A program made the position numbers and the translations under genes. From IMG/VR virus record IMGVR_UViG_3300020583_000001, positions 1-62,366 of that record: 62,366 bases of DNA. One strand, 5' to 3'. Source of the DNA: a virus. Its lineage: Duplodnaviria > Caudoviricetes. Each line of letters starts with the position of its first letter. Positions within the stretch are counted from its first letter, which is position 1. This document shows, piece by piece, positions 4,430-27,652 of the stretch. Below the pieces are notes generated by a model. The model did not search any database. It was given only the letters and a program-made list of their open reading frames with translations, and was not told where the DNA came from.

Positions 4430-6079
4430 TTAGTGTGCGGCAGCGTGTTTGGCCAAGTAGGCGGCGGCTTCCTCGTCTGCGGTCTGCGGAGGCTTGGGCA
4501 TGTGCGAATCGCCGTAGCCGACCGCCGCGCCTTTCTTGCCATACTTATAAGCATCGTCCATGACATCCTTGAGCCGTGCCTTGATCGTTTCCAGTTTTTC
4601 CTTCATCAGCTTCGGCGAATCTACCCACGGATTAGGTGTGTGCTCTAGCGCCTTCTTTAACGCCAGCACGGATCGACTGGTCCCTTTGAGCACTGACGCG
4701 GCCTCGACTACCGAGCCAAGCGACAGTCCAGCGATATCCTTGCCCAGTGATCCTTCTGGGGATGCGATGCCAATGGCGTACTTAGCCCGTGGCCCCAGCA
4801 GGTATCCAGAGGAGTTATTATTCCCCAGCTTGAGATCGTTGATATCCTTCAGCAGCCCGTCGATCTGATCCATGACCGGGCTTGCGGCGATGATCGTCTT
4901 CTGTGCTTCGGGGATCAGCGTCACCGGAGCATTGCGCCCTTGGTCTTTGAGATATTTTTCAACCGCTGGCTTGTCCTTGGACGATGGCACCACGCCATTC
5001 TGCTCCCAGTCATCGGCCATCGCAGCTACGCGGCCCCCGCCACCTCCCTTGGCTGTCGATGGCCCTCTGCCAGACTTCGCGGTGGGCGGAGCAGGCATCC
5101 CACTCTTACCTCTCGGTGGAACCTTCTGTGTCGTCCGCGAGGATGTAGTCGTTCCTGTATCAGGATTGTAGGTGCTGGAGCTACTGCTGACCGTCGGCAG
5201 CGTCCCTGGAAGTATCTGCCCTGCATTCTCAACCGGCTCGCCATTCTGATCGAATACCTGTCCAGTCGTCAAATCCTGCGTGCCAAATAGCCGCTTGGTG
5301 GGATCATTCGGATCGCTATAGGTGACCGGATGTGGCTTGACCCGTGCCTGCGCGGCCTTAACCGAATATTCTCCTCGGACCTTCTCCTCTTCCTGCTTCC
5401 GCTGGGATGCGTCATCGAGATCGGATTGCGCGACCTGATGCGCCGACTCAGCCTGTGACCGCGCCAGCGACGTCCCTGGATCTTGCCCTGCTGGAGTGTA
5501 TCCCGGTGGTGGAGGCATTTGCGTCCCAGATGCGTCAGGCGAGGCGTTCGGCGGTACGGGCATCCCTGAGCCTCCCTTAGCCCCTTCTCCTCCAGCAGGA
5601 GCAGCGTTCTGCGGCGGCTGAGGCATCCCTGTCGCTGGTTGCTGACCCTGCCCACCTTGTCCCGGCTGTGGTGGGTTTCCGCCCGCTCGATGGTGTACGA
5701 GCTTATCGGTGAACTGTCCTAGCTTGCCGATGATCGACTTGTTCTCTTTGCTTACTCCCGCCGCCTTCTGCCATGCGTCGAATGCTGCTTTGCGCTGGAG
5801 TTCTAACTTCTGCCCTTCCGGCGTCAGCGTGCCATCCTTGCCCATATACTTGCCGGTAGTATCCCCGGCGAGCACCTGTGACAACTCTCCATAGCTGCGG
5901 TGATTACGATCCGCTTCGGCGACTCGCTTGGCGTGGGCGTCTTCCAACTGCTGCCGGACCATCGGCATTCCGCCGCCAGTAAGATTGACGAGGAATCCCT
6001 TGAGCTTGTCGCCTTCAGAGCCGGAGCCCACGCCAGCAACAGGCGTATCTGTCGGAGGTGGTGGCATGGAAGTTCCCAT
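4430..6079 (-). CDS. Putative internal virion/DNA ejection protein, Pro/Gly-rich
   Basis: 549 aa, largely disordered, repeated MPxPP motifs; position in the ejection cluster. Confidence 0.55.
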   Translation of the reverse strand: MGTSMPPPPTDTPVAGVGSGSEGDKLKGFLVNLTGGGMPMVRQQLEDAHAKRVAEADRNHRSYGELSQVLAGDTTGKYMGKDGTLTPEGQKLELQRKAAFDAWQKAAGVSKENKSIIGKLGQFTDKLVHHRAGGNPPQPGQGGQGQQPATGMPQPPQNAAPAGGEGAKGGSGMPVPPNASPDASGTQMPPPPGYTPAGQDPGTSLARSQAESAHQVAQSDLDDASQRKQEEEKVRGEYSVKAAQARVKPHPVTYSDPNDPTKRLFGTQDLTTGQVFDQNGEPVENAGQILPGTLPTVSSSSSTYNPDTGTTTSSRTTQKVPPRGKSGMPAPPTAKSGRGPSTAKGGGGGRVAAMADDWEQNGVVPSSKDKPAVEKYLKDQGRNAPVTLIPEAQKTIIAASPVMDQIDGLLKDINDLKLGNNNSSGYLLGPRAKYAIGIASPEGSLGKDIAGLSLGSVVEAASVLKGTSRSVLALKKALEHTPNPWVDSPKLMKEKLETIKARLKDVMDDAYKYGKKGAAVGYGDSHMPKPPQTADEEAAAYLAKHAAAH

Positions 6080-6708
6080 TACATTGACGCTCCCAGGTCG
6101 AGTAATGTACTGACAGTTGTGGCGGCGTTATTGGCGTTCTGATTATGCAGATCATTCGACTCCGCCCGCGAATCTCCCGCCAACGATGTCAGCGACTTGG
6201 CCGCTCCAGTCCCAATCCCAAGCAGGTTCAAGGCCGCGCTCAGTTGCGAATCCCCCACCTTACTCGTTGTTCCGGCAACCTGTGTGGCCCCTTGCGCCGC
6301 TGTGGACTTCGCCTGATTTACCGCCGTATCGACCGCTGCGTTCTTATTCGTATCAATCTGCTGGCCGACCGCGTTTACTCCCCCGCCGCGAGCCGTCCCT
6401 GAATTAGCAATCTGTTTCTTCTGCGCATCGGCCCCGGCGTTCGCTGCGTTGACCGTTGGCGCTACTGCGCTGAGAGTCTGCTGCCGATTACCGCTCAAGA
6501 GGTCGGAGTAATACTTCGCTGGCGACGACAACTGCGAGAGGGCATCCTTTTGTGTTGCCTGTCCCGCCGTGTATCCAGCTTCAGCATTGGGCAGCGCGAA
6601 GTTGAACACATTGTTGAGATCGCCGAATCCCTGGAGTTGATTCTTGCGATCAGTCTTCGCCCCACTTCCCGAGAACAGGCTGAATATCGCGCTCAGTGGT
6701 GATCCCAT
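6079..6708 (-). CDS. Putative DNA pilot/ejection protein (P22 gp7-like composition)
   Basis: 209 aa, rich in Gly/Ala/Gln/Asn, short hydrophobic N-terminus, ARGGG motif. Confidence 0.55.
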   Translation of the reverse strand: MGSPLSAIFSLFSGSGAKTDRKNQLQGFGDLNNVFNFALPNAEAGYTAGQATQKDALSQLSSPAKYYSDLLSGNRQQTLSAVAPTVNAANAGADAQKKQIANSGTARGGGVNAVGQQIDTNKNAAVDTAVNQAKSTAAQGATQVAGTTSKVGDSQLSAALNLLGIGTGAAKSLTSLAGDSRAESNDLHNQNANNAATTVSTLLDLGASM

Positions 6709-9065
6709 TTGTCTCCTATCTTAGCACTGGGGTAAAGGATCGTAGCCATAAACGCTGCGGAAGTGGGAACGCCGAAGGGTGGCGGTATTGGATCGTTCGC
6801 ATAACAACTGGTTTCATTGAAACTCAATACACCGCCAGTTCCATCCGGCACCCCGCCCATTACATGCAGAAAGCATTCCATTGCCGGGATTGCATTGGCG
6901 TGTCCTCCGAAAGTTGCCACCAGACTTCCGCCGCCCGGAGTGCAGTCCGAGTTAGAACTTGCTTGGGCATAGGAATAAGTCCCACCATTGCAGCGCCCGA
7001 GATTTCCGCTCGCCACGTCTGGTCCGGTAATCGGCCATCCCGCACAATATCCGGTTGTGGGATTTTTACCGAACGGCAGATTGCTATGACCGCATCCCGT
7101 ACCAACGCTTCCGCCAGTGAAATAAAAAGAAGATGGCATGGCGGACTGTCCTGCGCCCGTATCCCCAAGCGTCGGCACGGCGGTCGCAAAACTTACCGAA
7201 CCATTGCAAATCGAACAGGACCACAAGGAAGATGGAATTTCTGTCGTGCTGCCGCAAGTCGTTCCCCATCCCGTATCCGACGAGCTGCCGCACCACCGTA
7301 CCGTAGCCGTCGTACAGACTGGAGAACCGGAAGTGGGACACCCCGCCGTGATCGCGTCCCAATTCCCCCAGCGCATCAGTGTAGCCGGAGTTACGGCGTC
7401 CCAAGAGTTAAGCGTTCCGCATGAATTGTTGGTAGAGCACCAAGTCGTGTTGTAATTCGTGTTGCAGGAAAAGCCATTGTTGGAACTGAAGCCGCTGTTG
7501 TAGATCGATTGCGTTCCTGCCCCAGAAGTGCAGGCCGAAGCATTTGTCTGATAGACTCCGATCTGATTTCTGCCAGGGTCGCCCATAACGTTTCCTATTA
7601 CATTCTCGTAGCGCGAACTGGCGTAAAGAGCAATCGCGATGGTAGAGACCGTGCAGGTTGAACCGCCGCAGGAGTTTTGATTGCCGGGAAAAAGATTGCG
7701 AAACAACGTCTCCAAGTGATGCGTGCCGTGAACCGCGTCGGAGACGTAACCCAGCGAACTATTGCCTTCGTGCAGGTTGAAGTAATTACCGCCTGCGTGT
7801 GAGTAGTCCCCAGCGGCAAAGGCCGTGGCAAAGAACACGCTGCCAATTGTGTAGTTGTAGGCGATGACATTGCCGCCTGCGGAGCCATTGTTATTCGGGC
7901 AAGAGTCGGTGACTTGCTGGCAGATGTTGTTCACGAACACGCTGTCGGCCACACTGTTGAATTCTGTGGCGTAGCTCACGGCAGCGTGCGACTGGCCTTG
8001 ATAAAAATAGTTGTTCTCGTCCACGTTGTGCGAGACGATGATGTTGCTGATGTGCGCCCGCGACGGATAGACTCCCTTGATTCCCTTGACCCAGCATTTG
8101 TAGCAGTTGCTTACTTCGAGGATATTTGCTCCGGTTGCGCTCGTAGCATCAATCGACATATCCTCAATGCCGCGCTGGGTGGCAAACGAGGTTGCATACC
8201 AGACTTGCGGACTTTGCCCGCTGCGCCAGTTTGGCATGTATAGGCCGGGAGAGATAGTGATACATGGAGCCGTGAATGTGCAGGAACCGCCGCTAGTAGC
8301 TATATTTGTGACGGTGACGATCTGCTCTTGCCCTCGCGTGCAGGTTGATGTCGTGGGATTCCCCGAGTTGAGGCAAGGCCCATCGGTCCTCTGAAATCCT
8401 CCCTGGTAAGCGGTCGCGGTTGATGTGCCCCCGATGCAGGACGAGTAATAAGTAATCGAAGTGGCGCTCGCCGGAGGGCCGTTGCAGTTGAAGACAGAGC
8501 CTGGATCGGTGCCTTCATCCAGTTGATCGAGCACAAGCATTGAACCAACTGTTAGATTCGAGAGACTGCCGACTGCCGGAGTGGTTGAGCCGCAGTTGGC
8601 GATTGTGATGACCGTCGTGCCTGCCGTATATCCAGCGATCCAGTCGCACACATTGTCGGGATTGGAACTGGCGTTAGTCGTCGAACCTTGAATGCAGACC
8701 GCTGCGTAGTTATAGAGGCAGGCATTGTGCCCGGTCATCACGAGGAACGTCTGATTCGCTCCCCCGCCCCGCACCACTACATTGTCATGGCTGATGTTGA
8801 AGCCGCTCGTCAGGTTAAATGTTCCGTTTCCCAGGAGAACATATTGATTGTTGGAGCAGCCAGCCGTCGCGCTCGTTATCGTTGCTCCGCTGCCCGAGTA
8901 TGGCGCGATGGTCGAGCCGCACTGCGTCCATGAAGCATCGGGCGGTGTGATGCCAGGGAATCCAGCCTGTGTCCAGTCGATAGCACGCGACGGGTCGATG
9001 ATGCCGGACCATGCTTGGCCGAAGCAGGATGCAACCAACAATAGAAATGTGAAGCAGTGCTTCAT
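6693..9065 (-). CDS. Secreted pectate-lyase-like right-handed beta-helix protein, Cys-rich
   Basis: Signal peptide MKHCFTFLLLVASCFG; VVVRGGG, GIEDMSI and CWVKGI beta-helix rungs with Asn ladders. Confidence 0.7.
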   Translation of the reverse strand: MKHCFTFLLLVASCFGQAWSGIIDPSRAIDWTQAGFPGITPPDASWTQCGSTIAPYSGSGATITSATAGCSNNQYVLLGNGTFNLTSGFNISHDNVVVRGGGANQTFLVMTGHNACLYNYAAVCIQGSTTNASSNPDNVCDWIAGYTAGTTVITIANCGSTTPAVGSLSNLTVGSMLVLDQLDEGTDPGSVFNCNGPPASATSITYYSSCIGGTSTATAYQGGFQRTDGPCLNSGNPTTSTCTRGQEQIVTVTNIATSGGSCTFTAPCITISPGLYMPNWRSGQSPQVWYATSFATQRGIEDMSIDATSATGANILEVSNCYKCWVKGIKGVYPSRAHISNIIVSHNVDENNYFYQGQSHAAVSYATEFNSVADSVFVNNICQQVTDSCPNNNGSAGGNVIAYNYTIGSVFFATAFAAGDYSHAGGNYFNLHEGNSSLGYVSDAVHGTHHLETLFRNLFPGNQNSCGGSTCTVSTIAIALYASSRYENVIGNVMGDPGRNQIGVYQTNASACTSGAGTQSIYNSGFSSNNGFSCNTNYNTTWCSTNNSCGTLNSWDAVTPATLMRWGNWDAITAGCPTSGSPVCTTATVRWCGSSSDTGWGTTCGSTTEIPSSLWSCSICNGSVSFATAVPTLGDTGAGQSAMPSSFYFTGGSVGTGCGHSNLPFGKNPTTGYCAGWPITGPDVASGNLGRCNGGTYSYAQASSNSDCTPGGGSLVATFGGHANAIPAMECFLHVMGGVPDGTGGVLSFNETSCYANDPIPPPFGVPTSAAFMATILYPSAKIGDKWDHH

Positions 9066-10879
9066 GGAGTTATGGTCGGAGGGCAGATTCCGCCGTTAAT
9101 CATGTCGTAGCAGAATGCCCACTTGTCGTAATAAAATTTTCTTCCGCTAACTGTGGTCGGTGACGGAATTCCAATACGAGCCGCTTCCGGCAAGTCAGCG
9201 CTGGCCGATCCGTAGAAAGTTGCCAGTACGGTTCCTGTGTCGCTCAAGATTGTCATCGGGCTTGCAGGCTGGACGGTGTAACCGCTGGAATGAGGGTTAA
9301 CCGTCGTAACCGTTATCGTCCCTGACGCCGCCCCGCTGGTACAAGTTGTCGAGGTTGGCTGCACGAATTCAGCCGTCCCCGTACCGGCAATGTAGTAAGG
9401 CGCATTGGGATTAAACGGACAGCCAGACGCAAGCGTAATCGTGTTGGAACCAGCCGATAAAGAGGTTGGAGATGATGGAGATTGCGCTGCAAGCCCTCCG
9501 TTGACCTGCATGTTGAACTTTACCCATGTGCCTGAAGTGTAGGTCAAAGGCGCGGCCACGCCGGGATTCAGACCGTTCAAACAGCTTCCGGCTCCAGCGG
9601 TTGCGCACTCCAGCAATAAAGTAGAGCCATTGGCGATAAGTTGGATGTTGGGCGAGTCTCCCGTACCGTTGGTAACTGTAACTAGTGCGTGCTCAGTCAC
9701 CGTATCGGTCGCCAGCACGGTCGAACAGAAATCCATCGAGGTTGTTGTGGTAGATTGGATCATGTAAGGAAATGTGAGGCTCGCTCCGGGTAAATTCCAC
9801 TGCACGGTAGAGTTCTGCGAGCCGCTATTAGCCAGAGAGAATGCCAATCCAAGCGTGCTACTGTTCGGATAAGTTTGTCCACTGTAAAGAAATCGTGGAG
9901 GAGAGTTTAAGAGTGGATGACTGGCGCTGGTGCAGGAGTCTCCCGTGCTGCCTATATATTCAATGGAACTTCCGGTTGCATCCGTCACTGCGAAATTCCC
10001 GCTATTTGAGGCCGTTCCGTCGATGGCTGCGCCGAATAGCGAACTGTGTAGCGTGGTTGCGGTCGGTTCTACGGTGCTGGTTCCACCACTATTGTCCATC
10101 AGCGCCCACTGCGCAGAAGGAAGGACATTGTAGCCCAGCGCGAACTCAAAGACTCCAGGCTGTCCGTTGCCATTGGCATTTGACCATGTAGGCGTGGCTG
10201 GGGATGACGTGATATTGCTCAACCACGACGTTCCCGTGTAGTTATCGGTGGAATTGGTTGTCGAAAAATTCGTGTTCCACGGCGACGATACCGAACTAGT
10301 GTTACCCGATAGACCAATGATGCAGTCATCGGAACCGCTGATATAAATCGGCACTTGAACCAATGATGTGCTGGTATTATCGGCCAGTGAGTATGCGGAG
10401 ATGGCGTCGATGGCTGCCGTCCCAGAAACATCAGGGACGCGAAAGGCAAACAGGTAAGGGGTTGTTGCGCTGGCGCTAAAGTTTACGGTCAGAGTAGCAC
10501 CAGTGATCGCGCTGGCCGAAGTGATGTAATATGCAGATCGAGTTCCGCCCGCGAAACTGCCGCCGATATACTGGTTTTGCCAAAATGGGATTCGGTAGCC
10601 CGTCTGCCCCGTGACGCTCGTGATGTAGACTCCGCCGCCACTGGAGTTCTCTGACATCAGTACAAGAACATGATCGCCAGAAGCAAGGGTGACACTTGTT
10701 ATCCCAGCCGAACTCCCTGTGGAAGCGCTGTTTGAATAACGGACGATGGTCCCACAGGAGCCGATTATTACAACCGAGCCTCCACCTAATCCAGCTTTGC
10801 CGCCAATGCCTGCGTTGCCACCGATGCCTTGGGACCAAGCAAGCGAACAGAGAAACGGAACGAGCCAAAGTGTTTTCAT
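9062..10879 (-). CDS. Secreted Ser/Thr-rich beta-sandwich (lectin-like) protein
   Basis: Start at 10879 is coupled to the upstream stop (TAATG); signal peptide MKTLWLVPFLCSLAWS. Confidence 0.65.
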   Translation of the reverse strand: MKTLWLVPFLCSLAWSQGIGGNAGIGGKAGLGGGSVVIIGSCGTIVRYSNSASTGSSAGITSVTLASGDHVLVLMSENSSGGGVYITSVTGQTGYRIPFWQNQYIGGSFAGGTRSAYYITSASAITGATLTVNFSASATTPYLFAFRVPDVSGTAAIDAISAYSLADNTSTSLVQVPIYISGSDDCIIGLSGNTSSVSSPWNTNFSTTNSTDNYTGTSWLSNITSSPATPTWSNANGNGQPGVFEFALGYNVLPSAQWALMDNSGGTSTVEPTATTLHSSLFGAAIDGTASNSGNFAVTDATGSSIEYIGSTGDSCTSASHPLLNSPPRFLYSGQTYPNSSTLGLAFSLANSGSQNSTVQWNLPGASLTFPYMIQSTTTTSMDFCSTVLATDTVTEHALVTVTNGTGDSPNIQLIANGSTLLLECATAGAGSCLNGLNPGVAAPLTYTSGTWVKFNMQVNGGLAAQSPSSPTSLSAGSNTITLASGCPFNPNAPYYIAGTGTAEFVQPTSTTCTSGAASGTITVTTVNPHSSGYTVQPASPMTILSDTGTVLATFYGSASADLPEAARIGIPSPTTVSGRKFYYDKWAFCYDMINGGICPPTITP

Positions 10880-13800
10880 TATGGTATGGAGTACTGTGCT
10901 GAAACTATAAATTGATCGAGCGTGCAAGTAGCTCCAGCGGTAGAGATATAAATTCCGATGATGTCTCCTGCCGCGAAGGTCAAAGTTTGCGCCGTGCTTG
11001 TTCCCGTCCCCTTGGTCTGCGTCGTGGAACCAGCCGTTACGGTTGATCCCACGTTGCTAGTTCCGTCGAACACGTTGAAGATTGGGACGGTGGTGCATGT
11101 CCCGCCTAACGATGTAACAACTTGCAGGTTTGTAAAGTGTCCAGCCGCGTTTGCGACCGTCGAAGCGAGGACCGCGTTAACGGCTAGCGTACCTAACACG
11201 CCGACTCCAGAACTCAAGGTGCCACTCGTGGCGCTGATCGTCTCCGTCATCGTGCCGGAGGAGTTAGTATACAGTGGGAATCCCGTTGCTGGCGCACCAG
11301 CAAACACGCGCAACTGCGAGGTCACCGAAGTCGGTGCCATCAAGCAAATCGAGGTCGCGGTATTGCATGGTGCAACGGCTGCGGAGGTTGTCCCTTGAGG
11401 AAAGTCAGCAAAGCCTGCCGTGGTCCCGGTGGCGGTAAAAACCGGGGCTGCTAATCCACCTGTGCCTGTATAGGTAGCCGTCGTGCCAGTGTCGGTCAGC
11501 AGCGAATTTGCCAGTAGGGTATTGCCCGAAGCGATAACAGCTTTAGGAATTACATTCGTTGTAGGCGCTGAAGCGAAGTTGGCAAAGATGGAATCTGCTC
11601 CATTTACATATCCGTGAAAATTCTTATTTGTCGTGTCGAAGTCAATTACTCCAGCCGCGCTAGCCGTGTTGGTCGTAGTCTGCGGAACCTTAAAAGCCGC
11701 TGTTCCGGTAGCCGCGCTCAGATCAAAGATCGTGTTAGCGGTTCCACTGAACGTGTGGGTAGCATAAGTAAGGTCTGCCGCACCAGTCAAGGCCGCGCCC
11801 GATCCGCCACTTACTGCCATTTGTCCAGATGTTGCCGATTCAACCGCGCAGGTAGAACCAAGAGTACAGGTCTGACCGTTCACGGTTGTAGCCGAGTTGG
11901 TTAGTGCGCCGTTCGGTATCCCCGTGAAGTTTGTTCCCGTCAGCGTTGGAGCCGTATTGCAGGAAAATCCAGTCGTGGTCGAGAATTGCATGACCCCGGT
12001 GCAGCCAGGGAATGCCGCAAAGGTCGGAAAGTAAATCCGGTCCCAGTTGGTCGCCGCATCGGAGTACACGAAGCTGGCGAAGTTGTTCAGGATCGTGCAA
12101 GTGGAAGCGCCATCGCACAGATCGGAATGGCCCGCGTTTGGCGTGAGTGTGATGGTCGCGCCTTCGGTATTTCTCAGAGCGAAACCGTCGTTATTGGTGA
12201 ATCCCGATGAGGCTAACGATGGCAGCGCCAAGGCGGTTCCTGAAGTCCAAGACAGAAAGTTAAATCGGTCGGTGGCGAGCAATGTAGCTGGATTTGTGGC
12301 ATCAATCGGAACGCCCGCCAACTGCAACACCGGAGCCGTGGCGGCTCCTCCTGACGGAGTGCTCACCATGAATTGAGGCACACCATTCGGAGTAGTCGGC
12401 GGAGTTGTGCTTCCAAGGGTGGAAGTGGTTGCCCAGTAAGCGGGAGCGTATTGAGTTCCCGTTCCCGGCCCGCCAGAACCACAGCCTGAACAGCTCACTA
12501 CCGTCAGCGCTCCCGCAGAGGTCAGCGATGCGTTCGATCCCAAGCTAAGAGTGCTGGCAGTGCTATTGATCGTTACCGCGAACGTGCCCGAGGTCGATCC
12601 ATTCAGATTGAGAGAGTTCGCATTCCACGCTCCGATGGTCCCGTCGAACGCCGTTGGCTGATCATACTCTCCGACCGTGCAGCCCGATGCAGGGCATCCC
12701 GACGCGGACGAGGTGATTGTCTGTCCGGCTGTGCCGTCGTCCTGCACGATCTTGGTGCTGTTGGCGATGACGCTGGCATTGTAGACGTGGCTGCCAGTCT
12801 GTCCTGAGTAGAAGTGGACCGCTGCTGTATTCGCTGCGCCAGCCATGTTGGCTGTCGATACGTTCTGGATGATAACGCCGTTGCCGCCGTTGAGCGAGCC
12901 GACTTCAATCCCGTTGTTGTCGAACTCGCAGTGCGGATTCATCACATGCAGGCGAAGGAACCCGTCATAGAAGCCGCAATCGTGGAATGCCTGAAAGGTG
13001 CCGATGGCCTTGCCGGTGACCGTGCCTTGATCGAAAGGATTGTTTCCAGAGTCGCCCAGGTTGCCTCGGATAATATCGTAAGCCTCTAGTACCCAAGGAT
13101 AACCCTCGGTGTTGGCCGCACTGGCGATATAGCTTGGCCCGGTCGTGCAATCTCCGGTATAAAACTGGTAATGCGCTGGTCCCGCTTCACCCGTGAAATT
13201 GAATGTCCGATCCCACATTCCACACGCGCTGATCGCAGCCGTAGCCGTTTCTCCGGTGCAGCCTGCCGAGCCGGGATTGCAGCCCGCCGATCCGCCGTTG
13301 TTCCAGTTGCCGGAGTTCAGCACCACATGATTGGCAAAATAGCGGTCACGTTCCTGCGTGCCGTTATAAAGAATGCCGATACCAAGCGGCAAGCCTTCGA
13401 GATCGACGCCAAAGTCCTGCAAGACGCTGCCGAAAGAATTGGTCTGATAGGAATCGTTAGTGATCTGTCCCGCCCATGACAGCACCGGGATCGCGGTTGG
13501 ATGGTAAATTTTATAAACCAGTCCGGCGGTCGCAGTTGGGCATACCACGCCGGGATTGTTTCCCTCCGTTCCCCAGTTGCCAGAGATAGTAATCGAAGTG
13601 GTCGAGGTGAACCCGGTAATGAGCGCGGAGCAGGCATTGGTTGCGTTGGGGCAAGTGGCGGTAAGGCTGCTGGAAGTCGCACAACTCGTCAGGTAGCCGC
13701 CGACCATTCCACTGGTGAAGGTTGTGCCGGAGCCAGTGACGATAGGATTGTTTCCCGCTGCAACACTGATGGTTCCGGTTGAATAAGGAGATGCGTCAAG

Positions 13801-16257
13801 GAACGGCCCGCCAACAGCTCGTGTGGTTGTGGTGGGATATTGCGTGTAAGCGCTGGGGCCACAAGTAGCCGCCGGAGTCTGCGGTGAGTAGCAGACGATC
13901 AGCCACGTTCCCACCGGCCCCTTGGATGCGCCGCTAGTCACGCCGATCCATTGCCGCGCACCGGCAGGCGTGGTCCACGGGGCGCTGGTCACGATCCAGT
14001 AGTTACCCCAATAGATTGTTTCCTCAAATCCCGAGCCTAGCCCCGCACTGATGTCGGAATCGGAGAATACGCATTGTTGCTGCGAGCCTCCGCCCAGACA
14101 ATAAGTGCTGCCAGTGGATGCGAACGCGCCGGGGTTGCGGGTATCAATGATATATCCAGGACCAAGGTTACCCATCAAGGTGCTTAGAGCAAGCGCGAAA
14201 TCGGCGGTCGCAACCGGGACGGTTCCGCACAATGCCACCGTGCAATCACGGATATCGAAGATCGGCTTGGTCTGCGCGATGGGAGCCGCGCCTACCGTAG
14301 GACTGGGAACGAAGAGGCTGCCAGCAGGGACGGTTAGTGCTGCGAGATTGGTTCCAGTTGTGAAATAGGGAAATTGATTCGCGGTCGGGGGGCCGCTGCT
14401 GGTTACCGTGCCGCTGCCGCTCGGCGCGTTCCATGTTCCGTCTCCACGCAGAAACGTTGTGCTAGATGGTGTTCCACTGGCATTGATATCGGCTACGGTC
14501 ACTAAAGCTGTGCAAACACTGGATAGATTTTTGCTGGCATCGGTGCAGATGGGAAGTGAGGCTGTCAGGCCGCTGTCATTGAAAAGCGGCGCTGCTACTG
14601 AAGTCCCGGCAGTGGCCGCACCCCCGATGCTGAAGGCGTGCGTGACTAAATTGTCTACAAAGAAATTGGCGGCACCATTGGCGGTATAGGTTGCCGCTGA
14701 TCCGTTGTACGACCATGCGGCGGTTCCATATAAGCGGTTGCCCACATCGTAAACGTCATCTACGATGGCGAACGTTCCAGCATCATGTTCCGATGCCATC
14801 ATGTTAACCGTAAGCGCAGTCAGAACATTGCTGCTTCCGCCGATAACGTCGATTCCATACTGGGTCTGCTCATAATTTAACTGCCCAATGTTCATCCCCG
14901 GCGAAATCCCGCTTCCTGTGGGATTATTGATCACGACGCAAACTTCATCGTAACCACAAATAAGGTGTTGCACGGCAGCGTGTTCAACTAACGTCAAAGC
15001 GGTAGTAAAGCCATCAGCCCGCAATGTTCCGATGTCGATCAGGTCGGGATTCCCGGCACCGGGAGCGATCACGCATACACCGCCTGCGGTCGGAACTGCC
15101 ACAGGGACGCTGCCCACATCGCAACTATTGAACCCCGGCATCGAGAGTTGGCCGATGGCTACTGCGTTGATCGCGCTGTAAATTGGATTAACCGTCCTAC
15201 GAAATGCGATTCCATTGACGATCAACTTTACGGCAGTGTAACCACTGTTTCCGCCCGTGGATGATCCAGCGCCCGCGATTAGATCGCAACCCGTGCTAGC
15301 GGTTTGAATCACCGTGCCGCCTTGGGCTGCCCCGTTATCTAAATTTAGCGCGGGCGTGAGGCCTTCGATGTCTACAACTGCGAATGGAGTATCGACGAAA
15401 GTTGCGGTGTTGATTGTTGGAACCAGAATCATCGAGGTTGCGGCATTGGAGGTCTGACAAGCGGTGTTTACATTGAATACCCCGGAGGGTAGAAGAATCT
15501 TTGCTTCGGTCGATATCGTAGCCGTGCTAACTGCCGCTTGCAGTGCAGCGCCATCATCGTGATAAACACCTTTACCTGCAGTGGTTGGCGCAGAACTGCA
15601 AGCCGGGGAGATAGTCAGATTCCCCGTCGCGACCGCTGTGATCTTGCTCACGCAATCACTCGTACTCGACCCCGGACAGTGTTGTGTTCCGGTTGCGCCT
15701 GCACCGACGATACACACTCCCTGATTTACTGCAAAGTCAGTGATCGAGGCGACATTAATCGAAGTTGTGGTACTGGCTGTACCAGAAATAGTAGTGCTAA
15801 GATTCGCGCCGGAAGAAGCGACGAGCGCTGACGATGGAATGGAAACAGTTGGATTGATCGGACCTGAAACTAGGTTCTGCGCCGAAATTGCCGAGATACT
15901 AGAAATGGTTCCCGTTCCGCTAGTTGCGAGGGATGACCCGCTGCCCACCGTCATTGCCGCTCCGGTATTCGTCCCTGAGCCAATCGCACTGAAGGCTGGG
16001 GCGGATGCCGATGATCCGGCAAAGGCCCAAGCGCTGCCGGTGTAGATGCAGGCGACTGCCGTGGTTCCGCCACCTACAGTGCAATCGCTGGCGGTTGAAC
16101 CATCGGATACCGTGGCGAAGGTTCCGCGAGACTTCCCGGTGGGTAGGGTGGCAACCGTGTAAGGAGTGAGTCCGGCGTTGCCGCCGCTGCTGCTCGACTG
16201 TGCGACGGCTATACCTGATAATAGAAGCGCGGCGAGGAATAGCTTTAAGTGTTTCAT
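10879..16257 (-). CDS. Giant tail fibre/tailspike-like protein with a signal peptide
   Basis: 1792 aa; signal peptide MKHLKLFLAALLLSGIAVA; tailspike motif DDGAALQAAV...LLPSG; fibre motifs YTVATLP and SSTTFLRGDGTW. Confidence 0.7.
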   Translation of the reverse strand: MKHLKLFLAALLLSGIAVAQSSSSGGNAGLTPYTVATLPTGKSRGTFATVSDGSTASDCTVGGGTTAVACIYTGSAWAFAGSSASAPAFSAIGSGTNTGAAMTVGSGSSLATSGTGTISSISAISAQNLVSGPINPTVSIPSSALVASSGANLSTTISGTASTTTSINVASITDFAVNQGVCIVGAGATGTQHCPGSSTSDCVSKITAVATGNLTISPACSSAPTTAGKGVYHDDGAALQAAVSTATISTEAKILLPSGVFNVNTACQTSNAATSMILVPTINTATFVDTPFAVVDIEGLTPALNLDNGAAQGGTVIQTASTGCDLIAGAGSSTGGNSGYTAVKLIVNGIAFRRTVNPIYSAINAVAIGQLSMPGFNSCDVGSVPVAVPTAGGVCVIAPGAGNPDLIDIGTLRADGFTTALTLVEHAAVQHLICGYDEVCVVINNPTGSGISPGMNIGQLNYEQTQYGIDVIGGSSNVLTALTVNMMASEHDAGTFAIVDDVYDVGNRLYGTAAWSYNGSAATYTANGAANFFVDNLVTHAFSIGGAATAGTSVAAPLFNDSGLTASLPICTDASKNLSSVCTALVTVADINASGTPSSTTFLRGDGTWNAPSGSGTVTSSGPPTANQFPYFTTGTNLAALTVPAGSLFVPSPTVGAAPIAQTKPIFDIRDCTVALCGTVPVATADFALALSTLMGNLGPGYIIDTRNPGAFASTGSTYCLGGGSQQQCVFSDSDISAGLGSGFEETIYWGNYWIVTSAPWTTPAGARQWIGVTSGASKGPVGTWLIVCYSPQTPAATCGPSAYTQYPTTTTRAVGGPFLDASPYSTGTISVAAGNNPIVTGSGTTFTSGMVGGYLTSCATSSSLTATCPNATNACSALITGFTSTTSITISGNWGTEGNNPGVVCPTATAGLVYKIYHPTAIPVLSWAGQITNDSYQTNSFGSVLQDFGVDLEGLPLGIGILYNGTQERDRYFANHVVLNSGNWNNGGSAGCNPGSAGCTGETATAAISACGMWDRTFNFTGEAGPAHYQFYTGDCTTGPSYIASAANTEGYPWVLEAYDIIRGNLGDSGNNPFDQGTVTGKAIGTFQAFHDCGFYDGFLRLHVMNPHCEFDNNGIEVGSLNGGNGVIIQNVSTANMAGAANTAAVHFYSGQTGSHVYNASVIANSTKIVQDDGTAGQTITSSASGCPASGCTVGEYDQPTAFDGTIGAWNANSLNLNGSTSGTFAVTINSTASTLSLGSNASLTSAGALTVVSCSGCGSGGPGTGTQYAPAYWATTSTLGSTTPPTTPNGVPQFMVSTPSGGAATAPVLQLAGVPIDATNPATLLATDRFNFLSWTSGTALALPSLASSGFTNNDGFALRNTEGATITLTPNAGHSDLCDGASTCTILNNFASFVYSDAATNWDRIYFPTFAAFPGCTGVMQFSTTTGFSCNTAPTLTGTNFTGIPNGALTNSATTVNGQTCTLGSTCAVESATSGQMAVSGGSGAALTGAADLTYATHTFSGTANTIFDLSAATGTAAFKVPQTTTNTASAAGVIDFDTTNKNFHGYVNGADSIFANFASAPTTNVIPKAVIASGNTLLANSLLTDTGTTATYTGTGGLAAPVFTATGTTAGFADFPQGTTSAAVAPCNTATSICLMAPTSVTSQLRVFAGAPATGFPLYTNSSGTMTETISATSGTLSSGVGVLGTLAVNAVLASTVANAAGHFTNLQVVTSLGGTCTTVPIFNVFDGTSNVGSTVTAGSTTQTKGTGTSTAQTLTFAAGDIIGIYISTAGATCTLDQFIVSAQYSIP

Positions 16258-16700
16258 GCGATTATCAGTGTGACCAGAGCGCTGTCTCCAGCCGTATCTG
16301 CGTCAACAAAATATCTGTAAGGAGAGAACACGTTCCGCTCCAGCGGTGCAGACGACAGAAACAGATTCGCGCCAGGGGCGAGAGAGAACACCATCGCGCC
16401 ATAGTCATCGCGGTTACCTGCGCCTTGCACGCCTTTACGGACGATGTAGATATTACCGGTGTTATTCTGCACGCCATGCGATGCCCCAGCCTTGACCGCC
16501 TGGAAGATGATCTGCTGCACTGAGGGGGAATATTCATACTCGCCAGCGGTCCCGGTAGTGGTAGCAGTGTTCGGCGCGTTGACGCTCGCGGAATCGACCA
16601 GCGACATGATCGACACTGGAGTGCCGGGGGTGGCCACGACGATCATACCCAACGGCCAATCAGGTCCAAATTGATCGAGCATTACGGATTGAGTTGGCAA
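16254..16700 (-). CDS. Hypothetical virion-associated beta-rich protein
   Basis: GAGGAGG RBS before TTG 16700; motif NTGNIYI. Confidence 0.7.
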   Translation of the reverse strand: MPTQSVMLDQFGPDWPLGMIVVATPGTPVSIMSLVDSASVNAPNTATTTGTAGEYEYSPSVQQIIFQAVKAGASHGVQNNTGNIYIVRKGVQGAGNRDDYGAMVFSLAPGANLFLSSAPLERNVFSPYRYFVDADTAGDSALVTLIIA

Positions 16701-16712
16701 TTTATCCTCCTC

Positions 16713-16748
16713 AAATAACAAAGGCTCATGGACGAATCCATGAGCCTT
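16713..16748 (-). terminator. Intrinsic terminator/attenuator hairpin
   Basis: Perfect 12-bp stem AAGGCTCATGGA-TTCG-TCCATGAGCCTT followed by TGTTATTT. Confidence 0.75.
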
Positions 16749-16790
16749 CTGGTGGGCCTCGCAGCCCCAGCAAGAATCTCTGTCCGTGCC

Positions 16791-16801: not shown

Positions 16802-17089
16802 TTACACAGGTATCACCCAAGTGATATCGCCACTTTTACTATCGTAAGTGAGGACAGGTATCTTAGATAGCGTTGCCACACTTGCGCCGGATGTTGGTGG
16901 GATTCCACGGACGTTTAGGCCCGCTATCTTGGTAGTTGATGGCCCCCCAGCAGCGGGCGTAGCAGGCTTATCCTCCGCTGGTTTAGCCGCTCGTGTCTGG
17001 TCCTCCATCTTGTAAATCTTGTCGTACAGCAATCGCAGGTCTTCGTCCAAACGCTTGCCGTGGCCTTGGGGATAGTAACGCTCGGTCAT
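16802..17089 (-). CDS. Hypothetical protein
   Basis: 95-aa ORF coupled to the upstream gene (ATGA). Confidence 0.7.
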   Translation of the reverse strand: MTERYYPQGHGKRLDEDLRLLYDKIYKMEDQTRAAKPAEDKPATPAAGGPSTTKIAGLNVRGIPPTSGASVATLSKIPVLTYDSKSGDITWVIPV

Positions 17090-17880
17090 CGCGGCACCAT
17101 CGGATAGGAGTCATCCGGCAGGAAATAAACATTCCCGTGCTCATCCCAGTGTCCCGGCAGCACTCCGCCGTGCGCCAGGATTCGCATCCCGGCTTCTCGC
17201 ACCTTGCGGCAGAAGTAGATATCGTCGGTCATCTGGTAGTAAGGAGGATTCGACACTGGCGACAACAGATTGTGCTCCCGCGCCTGCTCTGTCGATTCGA
17301 TATCCACGAACCACGGCTTGGGAATACGGGCGAACGCCGAGGCGCGGATCATCATGCAGCCGGTGGCAATGCGCTCGCACTCGAACACATCGCCTTTCTT
17401 CCATTTCCAGAATGATCCCACCGATTCCCCTTGGAATACGAGCGGCGCGGAGGGATTGGTCTTGGTACCGTAAATTCCAGCACAGACTGCTACATCGTCA
17501 TCGGATGAATCCATCACCTGCAACAATTTATAGAGAGTGTCCGGTGGCGGCGGGTTGTCGTCATCGAGGAATAGCACGTAGCGAGTATTATAGCTTAGAG
17601 CTTGTTCGACCAGCTCGTTCCGCGCCCGGTCGCGCTTGGCTCCTTTGATCGTCAGGTATATCTGATTGGTATTGGGTGGGCATTGCAGGAGTGCGAGCGC
17701 AATCCCCCATTCCGGCGGGCAGTAGCGCCCTGACGATGGGATGCAGATGGCAACCGTGACCGTTCGCGGAACCGCTCCAGTCAGCGTCCACAGCACCGTT
17801 GCAAGCGGCTTATCCGCACTGCCATCCCTCGCACAGCCTTGCAGCATTACCTCTCCAATATCCATCAACTTGATCGTCAT
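17086..17880 (-). CDS. Glycosyltransferase family 2 (GT-A fold)
   Basis: ARNELV, VLFLDDD (DXD), ATGCMMIR and DDIYFC motifs. Confidence 0.85.
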   Translation of the reverse strand: MTIKLMDIGEVMLQGCARDGSADKPLATVLWTLTGAVPRTVTVAICIPSSGRYCPPEWGIALALLQCPPNTNQIYLTIKGAKRDRARNELVEQALSYNTRYVLFLDDDNPPPPDTLYKLLQVMDSSDDDVAVCAGIYGTKTNPSAPLVFQGESVGSFWKWKKGDVFECERIATGCMMIRASAFARIPKPWFVDIESTEQAREHNLLSPVSNPPYYQMTDDIYFCRKVREAGMRILAHGGVLPGHWDEHGNVYFLPDDSYPMVPR

Positions 17881-19826
17881 TCCTCCCCCACAATCACAAT
17901 CGGATTGAACACCGGCGATGGTATGGTCGGCTGGTTATCCACGTTGGTCACTTGTCCTGTCCCCTCGCCATTCACTATCAGAAAATCGCTGAAGCTGGAG
18001 CTGTCATAAATATACGCTGAATTATTATTGTTCCCTTGTGTGCTCAGATTCTCGCCGAACACCACCGAATCGGTGATTGACGTTGACTGCCCGGTAGCAG
18101 GCGCGGCGGTAAAGCTGGCTTGGTCAATGTAGTAGGTAATATTCCCGCCGGGACCGCTCGACCACAGATCCACCTGAAACTGAATCCCACACTCTCCGGT
18201 TGTGTATCCCGGCCCTGATGGCTGCTGCACTGGCACTCCCGGCGTTCCGCTGTACCAGTAGGTCGTCCCGTTAATAATCACGTAATCAAAATACATATGC
18301 TTGGTATCCCCGGCGATGCGGTGCGCCGACTGTTGCACATGCGTCCAGTTGCCAAGCGTGAATCCCACCGTCGCCTTGGTATCGATCCAGTGACCGTGCT
18401 GCTGATCCCATATCTGCCACTTGCCGCTGGCCTCGTTCCATTGCGTACCGAACATGTACTCTACGTTATCGGCGGAGGAGAACAGGAACATGTCGATCTC
18501 ATAAGAGCCGACTAGTCCTTTGCTGTCCGTGGGAATCCAGACATGGAAGTCGTTGGTGAAATTGGTGGCGGCGTTGTTGTATCCAGCGATCAGCACCCAC
18601 AGGATATTCGTATTCGGCGGTCCCGTCATCGAGAACTGCATGGACGCGCCATCGAGCGACGGGGTGGAATGGCCTGTAGTCTGGGAGTTATATGTCGGAC
18701 GCCCCGAGCCGCCGGGATTGCACGAAGGGAGATAGCAGGGAGCCTTCCAGCGCGGATTGGTCTTCCCTCCCGGCACGATGTCATCCAGGTTATTAACCGT
18801 GGTGGTGGCGGTCAGGCTATTGTAGAAATTGCTGTAAGCCTTCCCGGCGGTCGTTAGCGTTCCCGAGGAAAGTTGCAGGCCGTCTACTGAATCAACCGTA
18901 GCGTACCAATAGATTCTCGCAACCAGTGGATAAAGTGCAGTGTACCAGCTGGTAACAACACTGTTGGGATCGCCGGGAAGGGTGTTCCAGCCCAGTTCCG
19001 TCAGCCACAGAGTTTTCCCTATGTTGGCTCCGGTGAGAATCCCCGTGAACAGGTTGTATTGCAGCAAGGCGTCTCCGTTGGCCTCGCCATAAATATGAAA
19101 AGCCAGCACCTCCGCTGCCGCAATCGCTCCCGGTGCCTGCGCCATGTACGCCTGATACACCGACAGGTGCGTTCCCGAGTTGCCTACGCCCGTACTCGGA
19201 CCCTGCATCACGCTACTGGACGCTGAATTATAAGCAGCAGAAGTCAGTCCCACGGTGGAGAGGGCATGGGCTACGGTTTCTCCGGTAGCGGTGATGCTGC
19301 CTCGGCCCAGAATAATCGCCCGTGCGTCTTCGGACAGCCGCAGCATTTGTGCGTTCGTGCCCACCCATGCGTACTGTCCCGCGCCGCTATTCCGGGTGAA
19401 CTCATTCCACGGGCACCACCCCGACACAAGAATATCCGACTGGGTGTTGAAGTATTGCGCGACCGCCTTGCACCATTCTCGCCAGATCAGGTTCGCGCCG
19501 GTGCCATCGGAGTTGAGGTCGGTGGGTGGCGCACAGTATCCATCCCCTCCGGCTTGATTATCGCAGCCGGTGTTGGATGGCTGGCTGCTGGCCCATTGCG
19601 GCGTTCCGCCTAGTTCGTAGATAACGTCGTGAACTCCAGCGGTGCGTATTTTATTCAACCAGAACGCGAAGTTGGTGAATGAATAGACGCCTGAAGAGGG
19701 ATTGCACAATTGCCAGCGGCAGGTGTTGTCCCAGAATCTATACGTCGAGAAAGGGACGTTGACTGGATAGGTACTGCCGCTGTCGCCGACGATGTTCAGG
19801 CCGAAGAAGCTGGATTTGATGGCCAT
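17877..19826 (-). CDS. Clan GH-A glycoside hydrolase (GH39/GH5-like) fused to a ConA-like domain
   Basis: YRFWD, GTPQWAS, acid/base WNE, FHIY and nucleophile WLTELGW; ATG at 19826 preferred. Confidence 0.75.
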   Translation of the reverse strand: MAIKSSFFGLNIVGDSGSTYPVNVPFSTYRFWDNTCRWQLCNPSSGVYSFTNFAFWLNKIRTAGVHDVIYELGGTPQWASSQPSNTGCDNQAGGDGYCAPPTDLNSDGTGANLIWREWCKAVAQYFNTQSDILVSGWCPWNEFTRNSGAGQYAWVGTNAQMLRLSEDARAIILGRGSITATGETVAHALSTVGLTSAAYNSASSSVMQGPSTGVGNSGTHLSVYQAYMAQAPGAIAAAEVLAFHIYGEANGDALLQYNLFTGILTGANIGKTLWLTELGWNTLPGDPNSVVTSWYTALYPLVARIYWYATVDSVDGLQLSSGTLTTAGKAYSNFYNSLTATTTVNNLDDIVPGGKTNPRWKAPCYLPSCNPGGSGRPTYNSQTTGHSTPSLDGASMQFSMTGPPNTNILWVLIAGYNNAATNFTNDFHVWIPTDSKGLVGSYEIDMFLFSSADNVEYMFGTQWNEASGKWQIWDQQHGHWIDTKATVGFTLGNWTHVQQSAHRIAGDTKHMYFDYVIINGTTYWYSGTPGVPVQQPSGPGYTTGECGIQFQVDLWSSGPGGNITYYIDQASFTAAPATGQSTSITDSVVFGENLSTQGNNNNSAYIYDSSSFSDFLIVNGEGTGQVTNVDNQPTIPSPVFNPIVIVGEE

Positions 19827-19831
19827 TGGAT

Positions 19832-20335
19832 TCAGTAGTTGATCGTCCACACAAGCTGGAGAGTTTGGCCGTTGGAGTTGAGTGTCACGGTCGGTGCCAG
19901 TCCTGTTTCGAGCGCCAAGGTGCCGCCGCTGGCATAAGTATTATTGAACAGTCCCGCCATGCCGATTATCACCGGAGGAGCAGGCGTAGTGCCATCGTAA
20001 GTCCAGGTGTAGGAGAATTGCGACTGGCTGCTTCCGGTGACGTGCGATGGAGAAAGCGCGGCGGTGCGGATGAGCGTGGTTCCAGTGGCGATCTCTCCCG
20101 GCATCACCGTGTCGGTCGCGCTCGGGGTAGTGTTGGTGCTGAGTCCGATGTAGCCTGCGCCCTTGACCGATGGTGATGTGCTGAATAACTGCGCGTTCCA
20201 GAAATCCGCACCTGCGTTGGTCCGCAGGTTGTGTTGTTCGGAACGGAATCGCAATCGCCCGTCAGCGTCACGAACCTCGATCACCACATCGGAATGGATT
20301 CCCACGCGGTCGCTAAATCGTCGCCTTATCTCCAC
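19832..20335 (-). CDS. Tail fibre base/anchor-type structural protein
   Basis: GGGAGG RBS before GTG 20335; motifs HNLRTNAG, YIGLS and AGLFN typical of fibre base domains. Confidence 0.65.
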   Translation of the reverse strand: MEIRRRFSDRVGIHSDVVIEVRDADGRLRFRSEQHNLRTNAGADFWNAQLFSTSPSVKGAGYIGLSTNTTPSATDTVMPGEIATGTTLIRTAALSPSHVTGSSQSQFSYTWTYDGTTPAPPVIIGMAGLFNNTYASGGTLALETGLAPTVTLNSNGQTLQLVWTINY

Positions 20336-26461: not shown

Positions 26462-27652
26462 CTAAGTCCTCCCTCGGCATTCATAGTCCACAGTGATGGA
26501 CACTGAGGATGAATCGGTCAGGGTCAGCGTGGTAGTGTTCAGGGTGCTAATCCAGATGCGTCCGACTGGATCAGCCAGCGGGGTGATAGTGCAGATTGGA
26601 GCGGTAGCATAAGTCCCGGTGAAAGTGTAAGAGTTAGAAGTGGTGGAAGCTGAGAACGTAAGTTGCCCCGCTGCGTCTGTATTAGACGAGGTGCCTGTTC
26701 GCGTGCCGCTATTGGTCACGTTATTGCCTAAAAACACAGGAGCGTTGTTGACATAGAGGCCATAATTAGTGGCATGGCCGGAGTATGAAGTCTGGGCGTC
26801 AATATAGACCCCATAGAATGATGCGCTGGTGTTATTGCCGAGTCCCTGATCTCCCACATACATTCCCATCAGCGTGCCAACGCACAACGGACCACCGCAG
26901 ATAGACTCTCCGGTCTGCGGCTCTATATAGACTCCGTATTCGTTGGTCACGGGATCGGACACCGCTGATCCTGAAGGCACTACGTCCAGCACCATCGCTT
27001 GGGTTACCGTCCCTCCGAGACTGGTCATCTCATTGGTAGCTTGCCCTGAGAACGCCGCTACTTTAGAGACTGTGGCAGTTCCAGAAATAGCGCCTCCCGG
27101 CCACGCCTCGGACTGAACTCCGATGATCGCGTTGGCGGTTCCACCGTTGGCCATAGTTTGCAGGGTGAAGTTGGATATCCCAGCTATAGTTCCAGCGGCA
27201 CCGGCGTTGCTGGTAGTGTGATTCTCGACGAACACAGCAGCGTTCGCTCCATATCCTCCGGTAGGAGTGCCAGTACGAGAAAAGCTAATATTGAGATTAT
27301 TGATGCCGCTGGCTACGGCGGGATATGAGAGATAGAAGGGCTCAGTGGTATCCGCTACCTGCGTTCCATTATCGGAAACCGACGAATCTTGTACGGTGGT
27401 GGGAGTTACGAACACCGGAAGGTAGGGGCTGGCGCAGGTGTCCCCACTGGCGCAAGTGATACCACTGCCACTACTGGTTGGGCAAGGAGCGCTGGTAGTG
27501 GTTACGAAGCCGAATATGGAATCGGCCTGGACACAGTTGCCGGAGGTCCAGTTGGAATTGTAAGCGCCGCCGTGGATAGTGGCGTTAGTATTGATGACTT
27601 GGGCGGAGCAGCCAACGGTCAGGAGGACGAGTGCCAGCCATAGCCATCTCAT
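26462..27652 (-). CDS. Secreted (possibly lipidated) fibre-like protein
   Basis: Signal peptide MRWLWLALVLLTVGCSA; YGVYI beta repeats; C-terminal FTGTYATAPICTIT fibre-tip motif. Confidence 0.65.
   Translation of the reverse strand: MRWLWLALVLLTVGCSAQVINTNATIHGGAYNSNWTSGNCVQADSIFGFVTTTSAPCPTSSGSGITCASGDTCASPYLPVFVTPTTVQDSSVSDNGTQVADTTEPFYLSYPAVASGINNLNISFSRTGTPTGGYGANAAVFVENHTTSNAGAAGTIAGISNFTLQTMANGGTANAIIGVQSEAWPGGAISGTATVSKVAAFSGQATNEMTSLGGTVTQAMVLDVVPSGSAVSDPVTNEYGVYIEPQTGESICGGPLCVGTLMGMYVGDQGLGNNTSASFYGVYIDAQTSYSGHATNYGLYVNNAPVFLGNNVTNSGTRTGTSSNTDAAGQLTFSASTTSNSYTFTGTYATAPICTITPLADPVGRIWISTLNTTTLTLTDSSSVSITVDYECRGRT

Follow-up and report, generated by a model that had tools for sequence, protein, structure and literature searches.

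The 62,366-nt stretch of DNA analysed here, referred to below as the window, is the whole of the virus record IMGVR_UViG_3300020583_000001, which carries direct terminal repeats and is rated complete. On its minus strand lie three adjoining large open reading frames (ORFs) of 1792 (10879–16257), 605 (9062–10879; 621 if an upstream TTG is taken rather than the ATG) and 790 amino acids (aa) (6693–9065), each beginning with what appears to be a Sec signal peptide. Together they occupy 9565 of the 62,366 bases (15.3%), which agrees with the figure of about 15% in a preliminary description of this DNA. As that description also held, they are located between conserved tail-side genes on one side and ejection-type genes on the other. 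The genes are tightly joined: an ATGA overlap, read from the DNA, links an upstream 155-aa ORF to the 1792-aa ORF, a TAATG overlap links the latter to the 605-aa ORF, a further ATGA overlap links the 605-aa and 790-aa ORFs, and the 790-aa ORF shares 16 nt with the next ORF (6079–6708). The three start codons coincide exactly with these stop-start overlaps. No Shine-Dalgarno-like motif was visible by eye upstream of the three starts.

All three N-termini are built in the same way: they open with Met-Lys and a short basic segment, continue with a hydrophobic run free of charges and have small residues at positions -3 and -1, before a Gln. The predicted signal peptide of the 1792-aa protein (residues 1–19; 16201–16257, minus strand) starts with M-K-H-L-K and ends in A-V-A before Gln20, which is followed by a Ser/Gly linker. 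That of the 605-aa protein (residues 1–16; 10832–10879, minus) ends in A-W-S before Gln17, and that of the 790-aa protein (residues 1–16; 9018–9065, minus) in C-F-G, also before Gln17. In the 790-aa protein V-A-S-C14 is a possible lipobox and thus an alternative cut site. The three proteins are rich in Ser, Thr and Gly (35–39%) and poor in charged residues (K+R+D+E 6.3–7.6%, compared to roughly 13–30% in most other window ORFs). They contain 44 (1792-aa), 11 (605-aa, one in the signal peptide) and 36 Cys (790-aa, two in the signal peptide); the number is even in every predicted mature part and many of the residues form closely spaced pairs. Reading of the ORFs, their junctions and their composition therefore confirms the preliminary picture of three coupled, Ser/Thr/Gly-rich and Cys-rich proteins with signal peptides ending before Gln.

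Signal peptides were scored with a crude rule of our own, which demands a positive n-region, a 9-residue hydrophobic window and small residues at -3 and -1. It flags 6 of the 36 window ORFs of at least 150 aa, including all three members of the cassette. The others are a 396-aa ORF (26462–27652) and two doubtful cases, an internal start within a glycosyltransferase and a 208-aa membrane-like ORF. A comparison that took in the window and five relatives set 14 signal-peptide ORFs against 95 other ORFs of at least 300 aa: the former have more Cys (median 2.07% vs 1.17%, p 0.0009) and a far lower content of charged residues (median 7.3% vs 23.4%, p 1e-7). The joint occurrence of signal peptide and disulfide potential is the strongest indirect indication of genuine export. 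No Pfam or PHROG family is matched by any of the three proteins at E≤0.01.

The phage itself appears to be a podovirus-like soil phage of Terriglobia (Acidobacteria), distantly related to the cultured phages Tunturi 1 and 2. Its minus strand codes for a terminase, a P22-like portal, a major head protein and a tail fibre with repeats; no tRNA was found in the window and no integrase among the window ORFs scanned. At 49 viral-contig loci, many on contigs of 62–66 kb, the major head protein is 61–99% identical to that of the window, and the only GenBank phages with a match to it are Tunturi 1 and 2 (31% identity over 99% of the protein). These are podoviruses of Tunturiibacter psychrotolerans (Acidobacteriaceae) with genomes of 63.2 kb and 55% GC (PMC11924767), matching the window in size and GC content. 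Since the sole GenBank matches are phages of Acidobacteriaceae and Tunturi 1 has the same gene order as the window, the host is almost certainly a member of Terriglobia.

Comparison with these relatives reveals that the three genes fill a variable slot. On its upstream side, the 155-aa gene (16254–16721, minus) that overlaps the 1792-aa ORF has a homologue in 16 of 16 related phage records and is 31% identical (E 6e-12) to Tunturi 1 gp33, a "tail fiber protein" according to its depositors. The slot is closed by a 209-aa gene (6079–6708, minus), which is as conserved as the 155-aa gene and is followed by conserved late genes of 549, 643 and 361 aa. Tunturi 1 gp35–gp38 are the positional counterparts of the 209-, 549-, 643- and 361-aa genes, with gp36 annotated as a "lytic tail protein". 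Of 18 slots in relatives that are bounded by both flanking genes, 9 are empty (a 395–990 nt gap with at most one or two small genes), while the other 9 hold one to several large genes with differing contents. Among cargo proteins with a length of 250 aa or more, the rule flags 17 of 20 as signal-peptide proteins. Beyond the signal peptide and linker the cargo proteins have no common N-terminal domain; indeed, the giants of the nearest relatives share with the 1792-aa protein only the signal peptide and a Gln-Ser-Gly-rich start.

A slot that is empty at half of the sites might suggest dispensable cargo and, hence, proteins that are not part of the virion. This argument is weakened by the five complete empty-slot relatives, all of which have large signal-peptide proteins, rich in Cys and poor in charged residues, at other places in the late module. 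In four of the five these giants directly follow a homologue of the 338-aa gene, as do gp12–gp17 in Tunturi 1. Since every one of the five has them, signal-peptide giants are universal in the clade, rather than dispensable, and move between two slots.

Several further features of the slot were observed. The 155-aa gene is duplicated in G004 (L146/L147), G011 (L152) and G013 (L153/L154). In G011 and G013 a signal-peptide block begins with the first copy, and the second lies just before the homologue of the 209-aa gene; in G004 about 35 kb separate the copies, and a block of this kind begins with the first one only. A gene of about 130 aa, absent from the window, recurs in the slot of relatives with or without cargo (for example L145, 954–1346; L151, 948–1364), and its Tunturi 1 counterpart, gp34, is annotated as an acetyltransferase. 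The 361-aa gene (1384–2469, minus) ends the late block and has matches in 15 related loci and no Pfam match; its positional counterpart, Tunturi 1 gp38, is annotated as an "exonuclease". Finally, a hairpin with a 13-bp stem and a T-rich tail (16720–16749, minus) is located between a 95-aa ORF and the 155-aa ORF, before the coupled gene chain. It comes from a promoter and terminator scan which, as a whole, did not rise above shuffled sequences; the promoter consensus gave 10 sites where 11.3 were expected.

The 790-aa protein is the member of the cassette with the clearest relationships. At least 698 homologues match it at E≤0.001; those listed are 35–60% identical and almost all cover 94–97% of the query. 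Nearly all family members start with a classical signal peptide that ends in A-x-A before Gln. The rule flags 97 of the 119 listed homologues, most of the others being start-truncated or, by eye, obvious misses, and in 99 of the 119 a conserved mature motif directly follows the cleavage site. In the family alignment Q17 is nearly invariant and W19 invariant, as are, entirely or nearly, 12 Cys columns; H423, E433, D443, H446, H449 and R456 are also invariant. Of 97 predicted mature chains, 75 have an even number of Cys (binomial p 3e-8).

The family occupies 242 confirmed places (one genome per species), mostly in Acidobacteriota and including two cultured strains, and is present in 17 of 201 sampled genomes of an Acidobacteriaceae-level family. 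Neighbourhoods were counted over 10 kb around 80 kept loci, without a random-locus baseline. Wzy- or Wzx-type neighbours occur in 60 of these 80 loci and an asparagine-synthase-like gene in 56, and none contains another gene of this phage within that distance. For Terracidiphilus gabretensis, Pfam confirms a polysaccharide synthesis cluster around the homologue. Judged by their neighbours and N-termini, the cellular homologues appear to belong to Wzx/Wzy exopolysaccharide clusters and to carry signal peptides.

A search of the PDB with the 790-aa family profile gave only chance-level sequence matches (fragilysin, E 0.04). The AlphaFold model is a right-handed parallel beta-helix (predicted template modelling score, pTM, 0.85) in which the signal peptide is disordered. 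It resembles alginate epimerase/lyase, an AlgE4 module, the Vibrio lyase RbmB, polygalacturonases and phage tailspikes (VIA Z about 19–25), as well as phage capsule depolymerases (Foldseek E 1e-10 to 1e-7). The closer of these comparisons concern two types of protein. Secreted lyases and epimerases (V. cholerae RbmB, 9ozl; the A-module of Azotobacter AlgE4, 2pyg; alginate epimerase/lyase, 8ja4) have the same beta-helix (VIA Z 21–25) but no detectable sequence relation to the 790-aa protein, whose gene, in contrast to theirs, lies in a phage late operon; RbmB is encoded in the Vibrio matrix locus. Tailspike and capsule depolymerases (the K1 capsule lyase of a Klebsiella phage, 7w1c; CBA120 TSP2, 6w4q; LKA1 gp49, 4ru4) also share the fold (VIA Z 19–22) and, like the cassette, are late phage genes subject to modular exchange. 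The identity of the 790-aa protein to the solved chains is, however, only 7–15%. Moreover, the solved tailspike depolymerases are cytoplasmic proteins with an N-terminal particle-binding domain and are not known to carry a signal peptide, whereas the cassette proteins all have one.

The 790-aa protein aligns with its cellular homologues from residue 17 on and includes no extra N-terminal anchor domain. As this alignment runs end to end, no anchor seems to have been added, and the gene would appear to be a host-type secreted glycan enzyme, captured whole together with its signal peptide and without a particle-binding domain. A gene of the same type with a signal peptide was also observed in L002, a 56-kb viral contig with an integrase. 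There it is flanked by a beta-helix fibre gene on one side and, on the other, by a lysis block in which a lipoprotein with a spanin-like lipobox is encoded. The family has thus made its way into temperate phages as well. Among GenBank phages (50,697 records, E≤1e-3, low-complexity filter) neither the 790-aa nor the 1792-aa protein had a match.

The 1792-aa protein is of a different kind. Its relatives, on contigs of 34–130 kb, share differing segments with it at 43–96% identity, and the rule flags 14 of 23. The nearest ones retain the signal peptide and, after it, a Q-S-S-S-G-G start, beyond which the sequences diverge. Residues 30–595 (14473–16170, minus) recur as a 95% identical module, behind a different signal peptide, in L085, a 98-kb viral contig whose core genes are distant (portal 21% and major capsid protein 28% identical to those of the window). 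In L085 two further signal-peptide proteins follow the 1792-aa-like protein, and the 214-aa ORF upstream of it shows no likeness to the 155-aa gene of the window (E 3.2).

At the other end, the last 353 aa match 323 representatives (E≤0.001), always at the C-terminus. Of 91 full-length proteins with this module (at least 450 aa and a Met start), 62 are flagged by the rule, 8 more have a signal peptide by eye and about 21 have none. The module is nearly absent from host genomes, with two weak matches in 201. Its last 110 residues, including two invariant Cys, are highly conserved. The C-terminal 182-aa domain (10882–11427, minus), with C111 and C168 of the domain invariant, is a predicted homotrimer: three copies reached a score of 0.90, compared to 0.00 for the best of three controls, with a partner pLDDT (predicted local distance difference test) of at least 68 and a contact agreement between runs of at least 50%. 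In a calibration that used two copies and other alignments, 20 of 30 solved pairs attained this mark, as did 1 of 23 single chains.

A trimer, which the preliminary description had listed among its checks, is predicted for this tip; the model of residues 1–1200, built on a 12-row alignment (pLDDT 31.7, pTM 0.27), is unusable and no domain claim is drawn from it. The "tailspike and fibre motifs" ascribed to the protein in the same description find no support in Pfam or PHROG. The best ESM Atlas score, 0.89, lies below the bar of 0.9 and is treated only as a lead, and PDB sequence searches with the 1792-aa and 605-aa proteins gave nothing useful. Based on the trimer prediction, the mosaic pattern and these weak language-model leads, the 1792-aa protein is predicted to be a mosaic, fibre-like protein.

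Only four relatives were found for the 605-aa protein, one with a clear signal peptide and two apparently start-truncated. ESM Atlas leads, again below the 0.9 bar, point to a Laminin_G_3 cluster (0.76) and to a resemblance of residues 41–252 to small viral proteins; a pattern scan of viral contigs with this protein found nothing. A lectin-like N-terminal domain is possible.

Across these very divergent sequences the design of the signal peptide (basic n-region, hydrophobic core, small residues at -3 and -1, Gln) is conserved. The preliminary description had proposed conservation in related phages as a check, and the design does recur, both in homologues and in equivalent genes. With differing sequences and the same design in homologues and related phages alike, the signal peptides would seem to be features of the families rather than products of chance. 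Export of the three proteins is well supported by this comparison; export, cleavage and disulfide formation as such are what we infer.

A further gene bears on the role of such signal peptides. The first of the two slots holds, in the window, a tail fibre without a signal peptide (32077–33396, minus), which has tail-fibre repeats and a single Cys and, taken as 32077–33462, matches phrog_9625 (E 1e-36) and others. Its first 100 aa or so are the conserved fibre domain of the clade. In seven relatives (G002, G003 (L102), G007, G009, G014, G015 and Tunturi 1 gp12) this domain lies directly behind a signal peptide, with identities to the window of 57–59% (G007, G009, G014, G015) and 37–45% (G002, L102, Tunturi 1 gp12). 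The window and its two closest relatives alone have the domain without one. The window fibre starts 9 residues before the former cleavage point, the residues ending in F-A-Q|Q, and has no equivalent of the first Cys of the N-domain pair seen in G007, G009, G014 and G015. It looks like a derivative of a signal-peptide fibre that has lost its signal peptide. The coexistence of the two forms suggests that the same mature fibre works by either route. The conserved domain was not found in any of the three cassette proteins.

Proteins comparable to those of the cassette are present in a cultured phage. Tunturi 1 gp12, gp13, gp14, gp16 and gp17 all start with Sec-type signal peptides; the four large ones have 10–32 Cys and the 149-aa gp16 has 2. 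In contrast to the cassette, their genes sit after gp11, in the other slot, and the position of the cassette is taken by the acetyltransferase gene only. The names given in the Tunturi record ("tail spike protein" for gp14, "virion structural protein" for gp17) are predictions of the depositors. In the passages of the Tunturi paper that were searched signal peptides are not mentioned, "mass spectrometry" and "SDS-PAGE" have 0 occurrences and no proteomics is reported (PMC11924767). The siphovirus Tunturi 4, which infects a related host, has Cys-poor tail-tip proteins without signal peptides, and the host therefore does not seem to force export.

Other phage proteins are known to use the host Sec machinery. 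Exported endolysins, such as Lys44 of fOg44 with its Sec signal peptide and the signal-arrest-release (SAR) endolysins, are late products that use it before lysis (PMC6116005). They are, however, small cell-wall hydrolases of the lysis cassette, whereas the proteins described here are giant and fibre- or depolymerase-like. Carbohydrate-active auxiliary genes of soil viruses and prophages resemble the 790-aa gene in being host-derived polysaccharide enzymes, but among prophage carbohydrate-active enzymes (CAZymes) a signal peptide is the exception (3261 of 64,678 by SignalP, or 5%; PMC13507307), while here every large protein of the cassette has one, as do fibre-like proteins without a CAZy-type annotation. 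Virion disulfide networks exist in phage Milano (PMC10811340). In the literature covered, which consisted mostly of titles and abstract openings, no account was found of fibres or spikes with signal peptides in tailed phages, nor of a tailed-phage clade whose fibre- or spike-like proteins regularly carry them.

Two regions of the window outside the slot contain further genes of interest. The 396-aa ORF flagged above (26462–27652, minus) is a fourth, accessory late ORF with a signal peptide or lipobox-like start (9 Cys, 7% charged residues), with no homologue in 72 related loci and no Pfam match. In L085 a 485-aa signal-peptide protein lies at the matching place, before a homologue of the 548-aa tail gene. 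At 17086–19850 (minus) a family-2 glycosyltransferase (PF00535, E 5.5e-7) adjoins a 657-aa ORF without a signal peptide. The latter has no Pfam match and, judged by eye, presumably carries motifs like those of glycoside hydrolase clan A. In the same 72 related loci the glycosyltransferase has a match in five and the 657-aa ORF in one.

How might such a cassette operate? The three genes would constitute a swappable late-gene cassette whose products are made late by reinitiation behind the conserved tail-side 155-aa gene. The proteins would be exported via the host Sec system, cut before Gln, oxidized to form disulfides in the periplasm and accumulated there. The 790-aa protein would be a free or periplasmic glycanase acting on the exopolysaccharide of the host itself and released at lysis, the 1792-aa protein a trimeric, mosaic fibre-like protein that binds or cuts glycans, and the 605-aa protein probably a lectin-like partner. 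By cutting and binding the polysaccharide coat and matrix of the host, they may allow the progeny to escape from the debris and reach neighbouring cells. Phage depolymerases, both free and virion-bound, are well known. We favour a free mode of action, in the periplasm and after lysis, over a role as parts of the assembled particle, in the sense that we would give it an even chance of being correct. It is extended from the 790-aa protein to the whole cassette because the proteins share no anchor domain, the slot is often empty and the phage has a fibre of its own without a signal peptide. Both the polysaccharide substrate and action as free rather than virion-bound proteins are what we infer. 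Of the two fates envisaged in the preliminary description, a role at the host surface or matrix thus fits the 790-aa protein, while joining the virion finds its main basis in another gene, that of the clade fibre.

A number of observations weigh against free action. Export and cleavage are themselves predicted steps, and Sec delivery ends in the periplasm, not across the outer membrane. Signal-peptide giants are present in all five complete relatives with an empty slot. The clade fibre, whose N-terminus is conserved and whose other parts vary, has the make-up to be expected of a receptor binder attached to the virion, and it carries a signal peptide in seven relatives. Furthermore, in Tunturi 1, G002, G009 and G015 no candidate for a fibre or spike without a signal peptide was seen except a conserved core tail protein of 1200–1400 aa. 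The 1792-aa protein is mosaic in the manner of receptor binders, with modules that recur at 95% identity in distant phages, and its tip is predicted to be trimeric. Carrying its enzymes along would also be of use to a virion that has to penetrate a thick polysaccharide coat on a distant cell.

Tailed-phage fibres and spikes are, according to textbook knowledge, made and attached in the cytoplasm. Many of the points just raised would fit an assembly in two compartments, in which Sec-exported receptor-binding fibres and spikes fold oxidatively in the periplasm and dock on cytoplasm-built particles only once holin lesions and lysis have let the two compartments mix. This we regard as possible, if rather doubtful. 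Its extension to the whole widespread clade of Terriglobia podoviruses, including Tunturi 1 and 2, with the cassette proteins as secondary appendages, is held just as tentatively. The position of the fibre N-domain directly behind a signal peptide in the seven relatives speaks for it, as do the signal-peptide-free window fibre, which suggests that the same mature protein works either way, and the signal peptides of gp14 and gp17, named spike and structural proteins in Tunturi 1. So do the shortage of other fibre or spike candidates in Tunturi 1, G002, G009 and G015, the trimeric tip and mosaic exchange of the 1792-aa protein, and the translational coupling of its gene to one whose Tunturi 1 homologue is annotated as a tail fibre. 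However, the cassette proteins do not have the conserved fibre N-domain, the 790-aa protein is an apparently unmodified copy of a cellular enzyme, the slot is empty at 9 of 18 bounded sites and Tunturi 4 illustrates that the host does not impose export. In addition, the Tunturi annotations are predictions, the Tunturi paper contains no proteomics (PMC11924767), and no tailed phage was found described in this way in the titles and abstracts covered.

Conversion of the host surface, in which the exported proteins would trim the polysaccharide of the infected or lysogenic cell and thereby block superinfection or re-adsorption of progeny, seems quite improbable to us. It draws on the family-2 glycosyltransferase (PF00535, E 5.5e-7), which lies five genes upstream in the same late block, on the polysaccharide clusters to which the cellular 790-aa homologues appear to belong and on the temperate relative L002, in which an integrase accompanies a 790-aa-type signal-peptide gene next to lysis genes. 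Yet no integrase was found among the window ORFs scanned, the record has direct terminal repeats and is rated complete, and the genes lie among late structural genes, to which they are coupled, without any excess of promoter-like sites. Least probable of all, and very unlikely in our judgement, is that the N-termini are relics or uncleaved membrane anchors of cytoplasmic or membrane-tethered proteins, or that the true starts lie downstream: the missing Shine-Dalgarno-like motifs and the V-A-S-C14 lipobox, which could tether the 790-aa protein to the membrane, would agree with this, but the design persists in very divergent sequences even as the individual residues vary, each start falls precisely on a stop-start overlap, the 790-aa family has its conserved mature motif immediately behind the predicted cut, and relics would decay, as the signal peptide of the window fibre (32077–33396) appears to have done.

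The free-enzyme reading, like that of assembly in two compartments, concerns a class of large fibre- or depolymerase-like late proteins with export signals that is found in this phage, in at least 12 related complete genomes and in a cultured isolate, and the choice between the two can be addressed with an existing phage-host pair, that of the Tunturi phages. In addition, the 790-aa family points to a common but uncharacterised secreted component of the exopolysaccharide loci of Acidobacteriota. Should the cassette proteins act as free enzymes, soil phages that infect a dominant soil phylum would invest heavily in secreted matrix-degrading proteins, which would bear on biofilm turnover and soil carbon. 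If they are instead parts of the virion, assembly of the particle would span two cell compartments.

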